From Kiritimatiellia bacterium (GTDB taxonomy: Bacteria > Verrucomicrobiota > Kiritimatiellia > CAIKKV01): 64,000 bases of DNA. The notes under the pieces are model-generated. The model made no database searches and was not told where the DNA came from. It saw only the letters and a list, made by a program, of their open reading frames with translations. The translations under genes were made by a program, and so were the position numbers. Each line of letters opens with the position of its first letter. The stretch's first letter is position 1. The stretch is taken from contig JAWOJA010000010.1 of the NCBI GenBank assembly GCA_046484345.1, positions 1,811 through 65,810 of the forward strand. Direction: 5' to 3'. This document shows positions 4,934 through 6,793 of the stretch, piece by piece.

Positions 4934-6793
4934 ATGAGCTCCGCCCCGTTGTCGAATGCGGATTGCGTGGGACTGGCCCGGCCGGCCCTCGACGCCCATA
5001 CGCTGGGCCTGACCGCGCTGGCCCAGCTGCTGGCCGATTGCGGCACGCGCTGCGTGCTGGCCGACGGGCCCACCTGCGCCAGCCTGAACAACCCCGACGG
5101 ACCGGACCAGCTCGACGGGCTGGTCAAATGGATCCGCCTCCAGGGCATCACCGTCCTCGGCATCAGCTACCGCCTGGATCCCGGCGACGGCCTGCGCCTG
5201 GTCGCCCGGCTCGCGGAGGGGCTCAAAAAACGCCGGCTCCTGGCGGAACAGGGCGGCCCCCTGCGCGCGCTATATTTTGCGGGCCTCCCGAAGACATGCG
5301 AGCTCGTGCGCCGTCAGGTCCCGGCGTTCACCGCCACCTTCGAGGGCGATGAGACGCCCTCGGAAACCCTTGAACGCCTCGGCGTGGCCCCCTCGCGAAT
5401 ACCGCGCGAGCTGGCGGCCGGCGTCCGTTACGACGAGGACCGGCTCGCTTTCGGACGGAATCTGATCCGCCGCGAGGGGCACCTCGGCATCCAGCCCGCG
5501 ACCCGCGCGGGCTACCCGGAGTTCGGCGGCCCGCGCGATACGCTGGTCGCCCGCCTGGACCACGGCCTGGCCCACGGTCTGCCGCCTCTCATGCGCGCCC
5601 ATGCGGGCCCCTACGGGCAGGACCGGGAGGAAGCCGTGCGCCTTTTTCTCGACTGGTCGAAACGCCTGGGCGCCGGCGGCATGCTGGACATCCTTTCCAT
5701 CGGCACGTCCCAGCTGAGCCAATCCCACTTTGGCGAAAGCTGGGGGGACCGCCCCAACGGCGGCGGCGTGCCAATCAACACGCCCGAAGAGTTCGCCGCC
5801 GTGTGGCAGGCCGCCCGCCCCATGCTGGTCAGAACCTACGCCGGCACCCAGCGCCTCCCCGAACTGGCCCGGATGTACGAAGAGCGCCTTCACATCGCCT
5901 GGCACGCCCTGTCGCTCTGGTGGTTCTGCCGGCTGGACGGACGGGGTCCCTACAGCCTGCGCGACAACCTGCGCCATCAGTTCGAAGCCCTGCGCGCCAT
6001 CGCGGCCGCCGGCAAACCCTACGAGCCCAACGTCTCCCATCACTTCGCCTTCCGCGGAGCCGACGATGTCACTGGCATCGTCGCCGCCGTGCTGGCCGCC
6101 CGGGCCGCCAAGGCGCTGGGCATCCGCCACCTGGTGCTCCAAACCATGCTCAACACGCCCCGCGCCACGTGGGGTGTTCAGGACCTGGCCAAAGCCCGCG
6201 CCACGCTGACCCTGGTACGCCCCCTCGAGGACGCCGCCTTCCGCGTCATCCTCCAACCGCGCGGGGGGCTGGATTATTTTTCGCCCGCCCCGGTAAAAGC
6301 CAAGGCCCAGCTGGCCGCCGTCACCGCGCTGATGGACGACATCGAACCGCGCGATGAAAGCAGTCCGCCGCTGATCCACGTGGTCAGCTATTCCGAAGGC
6401 TACGAACTCGCGGATCCCGAGGTGATCGACGAAAGCATCCGGATCACCCGGCACGCCCTCGACGAATACCGGCGCCTGCGGCGTAAGGGCGACATCGACG
6501 ACATGACCGATCACCCGGACGTGGCGGCCCGGACGGCCTGGCTGCTGGACGAAACCCGGACCGTGCTGCGGGCCCTGGAGGCGGCCATCCCCGACCTGCT
6601 CTCGGCGGAAGGCTTGTACCAGGCGTTCGCCCGGGGCTATCTCCCGGTTCCCTATTTGTGGGAGTGCCGGGACGAACTGGCCGCCGCCGTTCGCCCGCAA
6701 ACCCGGCTCCTGCGCGGTTCGGTGAAAATCGTGGACCCGGCCGGCCGGCCGATTCCCGCAACCGAACGGATGGGCGCATTGGCCCTCGCCTAA
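4934..6793 (+). CDS. Cobalamin (B12)-binding domain protein, N-terminal DxHxxG Rossmann-like domain plus roughly 480-aa C-terminal domain of unknown function
   Basis: N-terminus LARPALDAHTLGLTALAQLLADCGTRCVLAD...VLGISYRL matches the B12-binding motif (DxHxxG...SxL...GG). There is no CxxxCxxC, so it is not a radical-SAM enzyme. No cap domain precedes the B12 fold. GGAAGGA RBS. Confidence 0.6.
   Translation: MSSAPLSNADCVGLARPALDAHTLGLTALAQLLADCGTRCVLADGPTCASLNNPDGPDQLDGLVKWIRLQGITVLGISYRLDPGDGLRLVARLAEGLKKRRLLAEQGGPLRALYFAGLPKTCELVRRQVPAFTATFEGDETPSETLERLGVAPSRIPRELAAGVRYDEDRLAFGRNLIRREGHLGIQPATRAGYPEFGGPRDTLVARLDHGLAHGLPPLMRAHAGPYGQDREEAVRLFLDWSKRLGAGGMLDILSIGTSQLSQSHFGESWGDRPNGGGVPINTPEEFAAVWQAARPMLVRTYAGTQRLPELARMYEERLHIAWHALSLWWFCRLDGRGPYSLRDNLRHQFEALRAIAAAGKPYEPNVSHHFAFRGADDVTGIVAAVLAARAAKALGIRHLVLQTMLNTPRATWGVQDLAKARATLTLVRPLEDAAFRVILQPRGGLDYFSPAPVKAKAQLAAVTALMDDIEPRDESSPPLIHVVSYSEGYELADPEVIDESIRITRHALDEYRRLRRKGDIDDMTDHPDVAARTAWLLDETRTVLRALEAAIPDLLSAEGLYQAFARGYLPVPYLWECRDELAAAVRPQTRLLRGSVKIVDPAGRPIPATERMGALALA

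Follow-up and report, generated by a model that had tools for sequence, protein, structure and literature searches.

The gene at 4934..6793 (plus strand) of the window, by which the whole 64-kb stretch of DNA analysed is meant, encodes a 619-aa protein in which a B12-binding domain is fused to a TIM barrel resembling the E subunit of glutamate mutase (GlmE), as indicated by the ORF itself, its homologues, the predicted structure and profile comparisons. This protein is probably a natural S-E fusion within the adenosylcobalamin (AdoCbl) mutase superfamily, judging from sequence profiles and a structural model, and we consider it rather likely to work as an AdoCbl-dependent isomerase whose substrate is an acidic amino compound of the opine type. 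Moreover, the conserved neighbours of the gene, an opine dehydrogenase (ODH) and amide-forming enzymes, suggest that anaerobic bacteria possess a pathway of three enzymes that has not been described before.

The ORF is intact from its ATG to its stop codon, is immediately preceded by a Shine-Dalgarno-like GGAAGGA and starts 4 nt past the end of the preceding gene. Long antisense ORFs lying over it (3532-5163 and 5270-7021, minus strand) were discarded as artefacts of the high GC content. The best 120 homologues are all 603-662 aa long, nearly all of them spanning at least 95% of the query, and the same architecture is found in 77 more full-length ORFs from species-level genomes. The fused B12 family extends to at least 401 species genomes of more than 15 phyla, mostly anaerobic, with identities of 50-84%; homologues number more than 2,700 in all, and a cultured carrier of an orthologue is [Clostridium] ultunense DSM 10521. 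Two genes joined by a frameshift, which the first-pass annotation had named as a finding that would overturn its reading, are ruled out, since a single ORF with one architecture is kept across at least 400 genomes, with homologues of uniform length. The public annotation of these homologues is 'cobalamin-binding protein' and nothing more. In fact, the 619-aa protein has no match at E<=1 in Pfam, NCBIfam or the PDB sequences, in agreement with the earlier remark that sequence libraries fail to recognise it, and the family profile finds among PDB sequences just a chance match to malic enzyme (E 0.8). A search of the whole window against Rfam returned neither a riboswitch nor any other RNA family, and no relevant literature was found on this protein, or on a combination of cobalamin or glutamate mutase with opine dehydrogenase, asparagine synthetase or PTS EIIA.

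As judged from the domain model, Foldseek, alignment to GlmS and conservation, residues 1-150 (4934..5383, plus strand) are a capless Rossmann domain of the DxHxxG type, predicted to bind cobalamin. The motif reads D20-A-H22-T-L-G25, then S78-Y-R80-L81, G107-G108 and A116-G117, the DxHxxG loop being encoded at 4991-5008 (plus strand) and His22 by the codon at 4997-4999. Among 78 orthologues, drawn from many phyla, H22, G25, R80, L81, G108 and G117 are identical throughout, position 20 is always D or E, and position 78 is S in 76 sequences and T in the other 2; on these alignments, the conservation is far beyond that of a chance hexapeptide. The domain model (pLDDT 89.5) is predicted beta-alpha-beta, with the DxHxxG loop straight after strand 1 (residues 11-15), and as this strand begins at residue 11 there is no room for an N-terminal helical cap. 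S78 lies at the end of strand 74-79, where the motif is S-Y-R-L (SxL being expected), while the A116-G117 pair ends strand 112-117, with G117 invariant and GG present in 11 of the 78 orthologues.

Structural comparison of this domain with Foldseek gave HcmB (4r3u_C; E 2e-5, TM 0.70) as the best match, together with the MCM small subunit 2yxb; 8jbs came fifth, amid response-regulator-type folds of similar score. By hhalign, the D14xH16xxG19 of GlmS falls over D20xH22xxG25 (E 3e-4, probability 39%). The Pfam B12-binding profile, PF02310, is matched by 25 of 36 family members and paralogues (best E 1.1e-10); against the window protein itself it gives no match at E<=1. The fold, the 4r3u_C and 2yxb neighbours and the invariant motif bear out the capless B12 Rossmann domain that the first-pass annotation had proposed, as well as its view that a protein without CxxxCxxC is not a class-B radical-SAM enzyme: that cysteine motif occurs in none of the 78 orthologues, which rules such an enzyme out, and neither the protein nor its relatives have a significant Radical_SAM match in Pfam. 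A capped corrinoid protein or photoreceptor is also ruled out, there being neither cap nor output domain.

The remainder of the chain, residues 216-619 (5579..6793, plus strand), is predicted from Foldseek (1cb7_B), hhalign and conservation to form a (beta/alpha)8 barrel with a C-terminal helical/hairpin extension. With the full-length AlphaFold model (pLDDT 84, pTM 0.88), the top Foldseek match is GlmE, 1cb7_B (E 2.6e-10, 440 aligned columns, TM 0.61 on the target, rmsd 6 A), followed by lysine 5,6-aminomutase (KamD), ornithine 4,5-aminomutase (OraE) and 2-hydroxyisobutyryl-CoA mutase (HcmA); generic TIM barrels come only at E>1e-4, at least five orders of magnitude worse than GlmE. At the profile level, hhalign with the superfamily profile places residues 201-612 over GlmE 45-443 (E 3.1e-5, 372 columns, probability 73%), a link which became detectable only once distant paralogues had joined the profile. 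In fact, the shallow family alignment set by hhalign against single GlmE or GlmS sequences reached a probability of about 1%, phmmer with GlmE found no link among all the collected proteins, and neither PF06368 nor the NCBIfam methylaspartate mutase E models matched the window protein at E<=1.

The distant paralogues that provide this bridge (P0162, P0172, P0190, P0223 and P0230) were found by the family profile, carry an N-terminal B12 domain followed by a barrel, and share 23-32% identity with the target. They bear PF02310 and PF06368 (Met_asp_mut_E), the latter being matched by 6 of the 36 relatives (best E 1e-6), with P0162 above the gathering threshold. MutL, the glutamate-mutase reactivase, is fused to three of the paralogues, and P0162 itself is fused to an ATP-grasp domain; the target, in contrast with these Pfam-detectable relatives, has neither fusion. 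R221, D335 and D378 are common to all 36 aligned sequences of family and paralogues, while H22, H223, D252, Q263, Y302, E364, K420, R443, H482 and E488 are kept in at least 90% of them. From the predicted structure and from transitive and profile evidence of moderate strength, the barrel is judged homologous to GlmE. The earlier statement that the C-terminal part of about 480 residues matches no mutase fold does not hold, in view of the GlmE match in Foldseek (E 2.6e-10), the hhalign result (E 3e-5) and the paralogues with PF06368 and MutL.

The invariant or nearly invariant residues at the barrel strand ends are R221/H223, D252/S255, Q263, R300/Y302, H324/S327, E364/N366, Q403, Q441/R443, H482 and E488 (codon 6395-6397), and among the 78 orthologues each strand end bears invariant polar residues: R221, D252, Q263, R300, Y302, H324, E364, R443, H482 and E488 are identical in all of them and H223 in 77. 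In the alignment, the residues R66, R100 and R149, with which GlmE binds glutamate, become H223, Q263 and Y302, replacements that are themselves invariant or nearly so, and the invariant R221 and R300 precede H223 and Y302 by two residues on their strands. As regards the two contacts of GlmE to the adenosyl ribose, Glu330 corresponds to E488, kept in 78 of 78 orthologues, while Lys326 falls on V484, the lysine not being conserved. For the catalytic Glu171, the alignment does not settle on one counterpart, S327 and R333 both being candidates.

The ODH partner is encoded upstream at 2980..4233 (plus strand), where the ORF starts with GTG at 2980 and the likely start is the ATG at 3094. It matches Pfam Octopine_DH (PF02317) at 1.7e-49 and aligns over its full length, at 260 bits, with N-(1-D-carboxyethyl)-L-norvaline dehydrogenase (CENDH, 1bg6), keeping the catalytic H202, R292 and D297, so that by sequence it is taken to be catalytically intact. 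Of 84 loci, about 65 carry an ODH homologue adjoining the mutase gene; since no ODH lies near the mutase in some loci of Tissierellia and Clostridium, the link is not obligatory. The partner often bears an N-terminal PTS EIIA_2 domain, or else pairs with an MscS-like membrane protein. The latter is represented in the window by a small protein of 224 aa (4255..4929, plus strand), with MscS-type TM helices and no channel cage (Pfam MS_channel_1st_1 and a partial match to NCBIfam 'msc'), and it occurs in about 17 loci, in each of which the ODH is of the subtype without an EIIA fusion.

Downstream, 6813..8345 (plus strand) encodes an asparagine-synthase-type amidotransferase of 510 aa (Pfam GATase_7 and Asn_synthase), which scores 415 bits with TIGR01536 (cutoff 267) and has the Cys2 nucleophile (MCGILA). 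About 33 of the 84 loci have an AsnB-like gene in the vicinity of the mutase, of a shorter type in about 25 of them, and a Ddl-like ATP-grasp ligase is encoded in 8 loci, from Bacillota and Spirochaetota. The run of closely spaced genes that makes up the apparent operon ends at 8362..9405 (plus strand) with an MscS mechanosensitive channel (Pfam MS_channel_1st, 2nd and 3rd; NCBIfam MscS and MscK). Homologues of it occur close to the mutase in only about 9 loci, several of them phylogenetically related. EIIA fusions, MscS and the MscS-like membrane protein recur across the mutase loci. In Bacillota loci, peptidases and arginase, which are amino-acid-related, were also observed near the mutase. 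By tblastn, a MutL-type reactivase was found neither within +/-8 kb in the 84 loci nor in the 64-kb window, and the ATP-grasp domain of P0162 had no match in the loci or the window. No other B12-related gene is among the window ORFs scanned, no methylaspartase is among the neighbours examined, and the surroundings of the mutase contain no conserved gene for a second subunit (S or beta).

Among the roles that the first-pass annotation had left side by side, these data favour an isomerase and speak against methyl transfer and against the sensing of light or B12. A non-radical use of the corrinoid, in which the protein would serve in methyl transfer, as a B12 sensor or regulator, or in storage or as a chaperone, with the barrel as a ligand-binding module, is nevertheless the rival that survives best, although we regard it as unlikely. 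DxHxxG domains are also present in methyltransferases and in CarH-type photoreceptors, 8jbs is among the matches of the N-terminal domain, the neighbours examined include no reactivase or other B12-related gene, and the regulatory EIIA link could suit sensing. Against this, the protein has no helical cap, unlike CarH and MtaC-type proteins, and no DNA-binding or signalling output domain; the invariant polar residues at every barrel strand end are as in a catalytic pocket, the barrel finds its best matches in radical mutases rather than in the methyltransferase barrels of the MtaB, MetH or UroD type, and the reactivase MutL is fused to paralogues.

An ordinary glutamate mutase (methylaspartate mutase, EC 5.4.99.1) with its S and E subunits fused, interconverting L-glutamate and 3-methylaspartate, would explain why GlmE gives the closest structural match and why the profile alignment covers nearly the whole E subunit, and a frequent neighbour is an AsnB-type enzyme, acting on aspartate-like beta-carboxylates. 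This reading was rejected on the missing arginine claw, whose three positions hold His223, Gln263 and Tyr302, and is given a quite low probability; the silence of the PF06368 and NCBIfam models at E<=1 also counts against it, as do the lack of methylaspartase and MutL among the neighbours examined and the conserved partnership with an ODH, an enzyme that neither glutamate fermentation nor the methylaspartate cycle involves.

It is very improbable that the protein is an aminomutase dependent on both PLP and B12, of the lysine-5,6 or ornithine-4,5 type, moving an amino group. KamD (9q1a_C, 8t0v_A, 1xrs_A) and OraE (3kow_B) are among the top Foldseek matches (E 2e-9 to 2e-8), and the peptidases and arginase of the Bacillota loci are amino-acid-related neighbours. 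In KamE and OraE, PLP is tethered via a lysine of the Rossmann domain. Here, the candidate was rejected for having a Rossmann domain without a conserved lysine, as no column of residues 1-150 has Lys in at least 60% of the 78 orthologues; furthermore, the rmsd to Kam structures is 15-23 A as against 6 A to GlmE, the paralogues match Met_asp_mut_E, and the conserved neighbourhood offers no gene for a second (S or beta) subunit. Finally, a relic B12 site on a cofactor-independent or differently cofactored TIM-barrel enzyme (aldolase, lyase or isomerase) might be read from the failure of the Pfam B12-binding profile on this protein and from the aldolases, RuBisCO-like proteins and PEP mutase lower in the fold matches, but it is the least credible alternative, with His22, Gly25, Gly108 and Gly117 invariant and Asp/Glu20 and Ser/Thr78 kept in 78 of 78 orthologues, unlike a decayed site.

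For the AdoCbl-dependent isomerase that we prefer, the following mechanism is proposed. The corrinoid would be bound base-off/His-on through His22 of D20-x-H22-x-x-G25, with the help of Ser78 and Gly117, and the B12 domain would pack on the C-terminal face of the GlmE-type TIM barrel (residues about 216-500), where Glu488, aligned with Glu330 of GlmE, may hold the adenosyl ribose. By analogy with the family, Co-C homolysis would yield a 5'-deoxyadenosyl radical, followed by abstraction of a substrate hydrogen and a 1,2-rearrangement. The replacement of Arg66/Arg100/Arg149 of GlmE by His223/Gln263/Tyr302 implies that the substrate is not free glutamate, and the presence as neighbours of an ODH and of an ATP-dependent amide-forming enzyme, AsnB-like or Ddl-like, leads us to propose an opine-type substrate. 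This could be an N-(carboxyalkyl) acidic amino acid, or else an amino or keto acid feeding the ODH. In one version, a glutamyl-type skeleton would be converted into a 3-methylaspartyl-type one, the beta-carboxylate of which would then be amidated by the AsnB-like enzyme. The end product may be a small nitrogen-rich solute; that the pathway responds to osmotic, ionic or nitrogen status is suggested by the fusions to EIIA (Ntr-type), the MscS channels and the membrane protein resembling MscS.

A bolder proposal, put forward tentatively and with clearly less confidence, is that of an unrecognised AdoCbl isomerase with a substrate class new for B12 enzymes, namely the opines, i.e. N-(carboxyalkyl) amino acids. 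In its boldest version, the ODH would provide an N-(1-carboxyethyl) compound or imine, on which the mutase would perform a 1,2-shift, either glutamyl-to-methylaspartyl or alpha-to-beta carboxyethyl, the opine imine nitrogen perhaps taking the role that PLP has in the aminomutases. The product might then be amidated or closed by a Ddl-like ligase or by a Cys-less AsnB-like enzyme, which, having no glutamine-hydrolysing Cys, may be likened to beta-lactam synthetase. The outcome would be a nitrogen-rich solute which anaerobes of over 15 phyla would produce in response to osmotic or nitrogen conditions.

Known AdoCbl-dependent reactions number only about a dozen, and additions to the list are rare. 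In this context, the family is of interest for being hidden from Pfam, NCBIfam and PDB sequence searches while occurring in hundreds of species of many phyla, for its extreme conservation and for a substrate pocket clearly unlike that of glutamate mutase. The mutase, the ODH and an amide-forming ligase would make up a compact three-gene module which is directly testable. Recognition of the family would bring a B12-dependent function into comparative surveys of cobamide dependence and, as we know of no physiological role for CENDH, it could also uncover one for bacterial opine dehydrogenases.

Among known systems, CENDH shares His202, Arg292 and Asp297 with the ODH partner, the latter differing in its frequent EIIA_2 fusion or MscS-like pairing. 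For the mutase, the nearest comparison is with glutamate mutase, GlmS/GlmE (MutS/MutE; PDB 1cb7, 1ccw and 1i9c), which likewise combines a base-off/His-on DxHxxG domain with a TIM-barrel catalytic unit; Glu330 (E488), D89 (D252) and an FP..D..KA segment after strand 7 are common to GlmE and the target. The target differs in being a single fused chain with S N-terminal instead of separate subunits, in lacking the R66/R100/R149 claw, in having V484 for K326 and in its ODH partner, with no MutL or methylaspartase seen in the neighbours examined. A TIM barrel combined with a B12 Rossmann domain is also found in KamDE and OraSE, which give strong Foldseek matches, but they are two-subunit proteins whose superposition is poor (rmsd 15-23 A). 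Natural single-chain B12 mutases, as proposed for the target, are 2-methyleneglutarate mutase and the fused isobutyryl-CoA mutase IcmF, although none of the CoA-mutase Pfam families matches the target. The B12 domain of the former is at the C-terminus, while IcmF, which unlike the target depends on acyl-CoA and contains a G-protein domain as an insertion, carries its B12 domain at the N-terminus, as the target does.

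The 619-aa protein encoded at 4934..6793 (+), hereafter the mutase, belongs to the B12 mutase superfamily as a natural S-E fusion whose active site has been remodelled, and it is part of a conserved opine-dehydrogenase/amide-ligase module. The finding of the first-pass annotation is real, and the identity of the protein is more specific than was supposed there. The ORF and motif reported from the sequence alone hold, since the ORF listing gives exactly this span with an ATG start, DAHTLG and VLGISYRL being residues 20-25 and 74-81 of the translation. A ribosome-binding-like GGAAGGA precedes the start, which is separated by 4 nt from the stop of the preceding gene, and the plus-strand run is tightly packed (intergenic gaps of 21, 4, 19 and 16 nt). 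GC3 statistics back the genes of this run, and the long antisense ORFs overlapping the opine dehydrogenase (ODH), membrane-protein and mutase genes, at 3532-5163 (-) (543 aa) and 5270-7021 (-) (583 aa), do not pass the GC3-versus-GC2 test; as artefacts they are explained by the GC content of 64%. A joining of two genes by a sequencing frameshift is ruled out by the best 120 database homologues, which are of similar length (603-662 aa), with 61-84% identity and, in nearly all cases, at least 95% query coverage. The public record of the identical sequence reads 'cobalamin-binding protein [Kiritimatiellia bacterium]'. The label of unrecognised class was fair as regards sequence models, as the mutase had no match at E<=1 in Pfam, NCBIfam or a phmmer search against all PDB chains, and a family profile of 30 sequences met nothing in the PDB beyond one chance match. 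A full-text literature search found nothing on the family or the module.

AlphaFold models were built of the full-length mutase (pLDDT 84.2, pTM 0.88) and of residues 1-158 alone (pLDDT 89.5), in which the N-terminal domain is a five-stranded beta/alpha domain with the DxHxxG loop after strand 1. It begins at residue 11, so that there is no cap, as had been proposed. Foldseek placed B12 subunits first, namely 4r3u_C (2-hydroxyisobutyryl-CoA mutase; E 2e-5, TM 0.70) together with 2yxb (archaeal methylmalonyl-CoA mutase), with a CarH-like B12 domain at rank 5; receiver, CpaE and other flavodoxin-like folds filled most other ranks with similar scores. In an hhalign comparison of the superfamily profile with the verified sequence of GlmS, the B12 subunit of glutamate mutase (E 3e-4), D20xH22xxG25 was paired with D14xH16xxG19, S78 with S61 and LYFAG with LLYVGG. 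Moreover, H22, G25, R80, L81, G108 and G117 are identical in 78/78 orthologues from species-level genomes, position 20 being D/E and position 78 S/T, and the Pfam B12-binding model matches 25 of 36 family members and paralogues (best E 1e-10). Models and alignments together identify a predicted B12-binding domain. The absence of CxxxCxxC, observed earlier in the window protein, extends to all 78 orthologues.

The C-terminal region was formerly thought to match no mutase fold, a view contradicted by both structure and profile comparison. The full model matched the glutamate mutase barrel subunit GlmE (1cb7_B) over 440 columns (E 2.6e-10, TM 0.61 on the target), as well as 6h9e_B, a further glutamate mutase E structure, unrelated barrels appearing only at E>1e-4. 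With GlmE homologues gathered, the GlmE sequence verified and bridging paralogues included, hhalign aligned residues 201-612 with GlmE 45-443 (E 3.1e-5, probability 73%). The region is thus predicted to be a glutamate-mutase-type barrel. Lysine 5,6-aminomutase, ornithine 4,5-aminomutase and 2-hydroxyisobutyryl-CoA mutase were the Foldseek runners-up; a PLP aminomutase of the Kam/Ora type is disfavoured, since no conserved lysine occurs in the Rossmann domain among the 78 orthologues. When 1.84 billion representatives were searched exhaustively with a profile, only 568 related clusters emerged, about 17 of them full-length family clusters, surrounded by a shell of paralogues with 23-32% identity and unchanged domain order. 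Pfam reads these paralogues as B12-binding plus Met_asp_mut_E, a distant one (P0162) exceeding the gathering threshold. In three of them the fusion partner is MutL, the reactivase of glutamate mutase, and in one it is an ATP-grasp ligase.

A pattern scan with one genome per species found a relative in 401 genomes. The best 80 are all at least 49% identical to the window protein and span Kiritimatiellia, Verrucomicrobiota, Lentisphaeria, Planctomycetota, Armatimonadota, Spirochaetota, Syntrophales, Acidobacteriota, Dehalococcoidales, Atribacteria, Omnitrophota, WOR-3 and further groups. Bacillota also occur among them, with [Clostridium] ultunense DSM 10521 and Clostridium sp. Cult1 and Cult2 as cultured examples. 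By tblastn over 84 loci, ODH adjoins the mutase in about 65; about 33 have an AsnB-like (asparagine-synthase-type) gene, about 17 encode a small MscS-like membrane protein and about 9 a full MscS. In unbiased ORF clustering, the only frequent neighbours were the genes for ODH, the AsnB-like protein and the small membrane protein, and in the gene tables of four distant carriers an Octopine_DH protein lies directly upstream in 4/4 and an AsnB-like gene adjoins in 3/4. Judged by its alignment, the partner is a real opine dehydrogenase, matching CENDH (N-(1-D-carboxyethyl)-L-norvaline dehydrogenase, 1bg6) end-to-end with 260 bits and retaining His202, Arg292 and Asp297. It occurs with a fused N-terminal PTS EIIA_2 domain (at least 20 loci), unfused with a small MscS-like gene in the locus, usually directly adjoining (as in the window), or as a Bacillota type (35-39% identity). 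MutL was absent from all 84 loci and the window by tblastn, the scanned window ORFs held no adenosyltransferase or corrinoid-transport genes, and the window contained no riboswitch.

The third enzyme is variable. An AsnB homologue of about 500 aa is present in the window (6813..8345) and in seven other loci; direct reading showed Cys2 in the window protein and in four of these seven (MCGILA, MCGIAG or MCGILG), the window protein carrying MCGILA and scoring above the TIGR01536 cutoff. A shorter protein of about 450 aa occurs in about 25 loci, for example L001 (9900-11255) and L014 (5732-7069), with Cys2 replaced by Ala, Pro, Ser or Asn (e.g. MAGIAG, MPGIAG) in the 19 loci with a readable N-terminal motif. 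An AsnB-type protein without Cys2 cannot hydrolyse glutamine. The two short copies scored, those of L001 and L014, score under the AsnB cutoffs, their match starting only near residue 66, so that their glutaminase domain looks degenerate. In Bacillota and Spirochaetota loci a Ddl-family ATP-grasp ligase stands in its stead next to the mutase/ODH pair (L078 5867-6859, L063 5921-6871; Spirochaetota L040, L041, L049, L071 and L074), where no AsnB-like gene adjoins, an AsnB gene lying about 3 kb upstream of ODH in L040; the two copies scored were both below Ddl cutoffs. The predicted common denominator is ATP-dependent conversion of a carboxylate to an amide.

Some further genes were recorded. NADPH-dependent FMN reductase genes lie near the mutase in L078 and L063. 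In [Clostridium] ultunense (L058) and Clostridium sp. Cult1 (L068) no ODH is found within 8 kb, the neighbours there including an M20 peptidase, an ADP-forming acyl-CoA synthetase-like protein, a TrkH transporter and a PEP-mutase/isocitrate-lyase superfamily protein. In the window, three genes are divergent from the mutase operon: they encode an ArsR-family regulator (2558-2986 (-)), a protein whose C-terminal part gives a CdhD-like (CODH/ACS delta subunit) match (1566-2585 (-)) and a 2x[4Fe-4S] ferredoxin-like protein (1261-1947 (-)). Beyond it lie a DsbD-like membrane protein and thioredoxin pair (10148-11353 (-)), an RND efflux system (AcrB-type pump 11594-14680 (-), membrane fusion protein 14677-15741 (-), outer membrane factor 15738-17759 (-)), an ArsP-type permease (17069-18466 (-)) and a membrane H+-pyrophosphatase (20425-22779). 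In each of two tandem gene pairs at 24267-29257 (+), the first gene encodes a PTS_EIIA_2 + CBS-domain protein and the second a CitMHS/ArsB-type anion transporter; this EIIA_2 domain type is also fused to ODH in other phyla, not in the window. At 35408-38181 (-) two unusual fusions occur in succession, RpiB (LacAB_rpiB) with serine hydroxymethyltransferase (557 aa) and then Sua5/YrdC with a low-molecular-weight phosphotyrosine phosphatase.

The analysis shows the fold and motifs of the mutase, its homology, its invariant residues and the linkage of its genes; the mechanism proposed here is inferred. Adenosylcobalamin, ligated by His22, would lie where the Rossmann domain meets the barrel, and homolysis of its Co-C bond would set off a radical 1,2-rearrangement of the substrate, which the R221/H223/Q263/R300/Y302/H324/R443/H482 pocket would hold. 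ODH and the amide-forming partners suggest that this substrate may be an opine-type N-(carboxyalkyl) acidic amino acid or its precursor. A glutamyl to 3-methylaspartyl-type rearrangement would yield an aspartate-like beta-carboxylate, the natural target of AsnB homologues. The MscS genes, the MscS-like membrane protein and the EIIA fusions, together with ion transporters each seen in one locus (TrkH in L068 and a Na+/H+ exchanger in L004), weakly hint at a solute under osmotic, ionic or nitrogen regulation, a hint partly confounded by phylogeny.

Residues R221, H223, Q263, R300, Y302, V484 and E488 are identical in 77-78 of the 78 orthologues, as are H324, S327, E364, N366, H369, H370, R374, Q403, K420, Q441, R443 and H482, so that every barrel strand end bears fixed polar residues. 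In the hhalign alignment with GlmE, the E171 region is ambiguously placed, E330, the adenosyl-ribose contact, corresponds to E488, and K326 is replaced by V484. R66, R100 and R149 of GlmE, which form the carboxylate-binding 'arginine claw' of published structures, correspond to H223, Q263 and Y302; the invariant R221 and R300 stand two residues upstream of H223 and Y302, each on the strand of its counterpart. Identity with glutamate mutase is rejected on account of these claw positions, and the fixed residues mark out a catalytic pocket for another substrate, probably a more anionic one.
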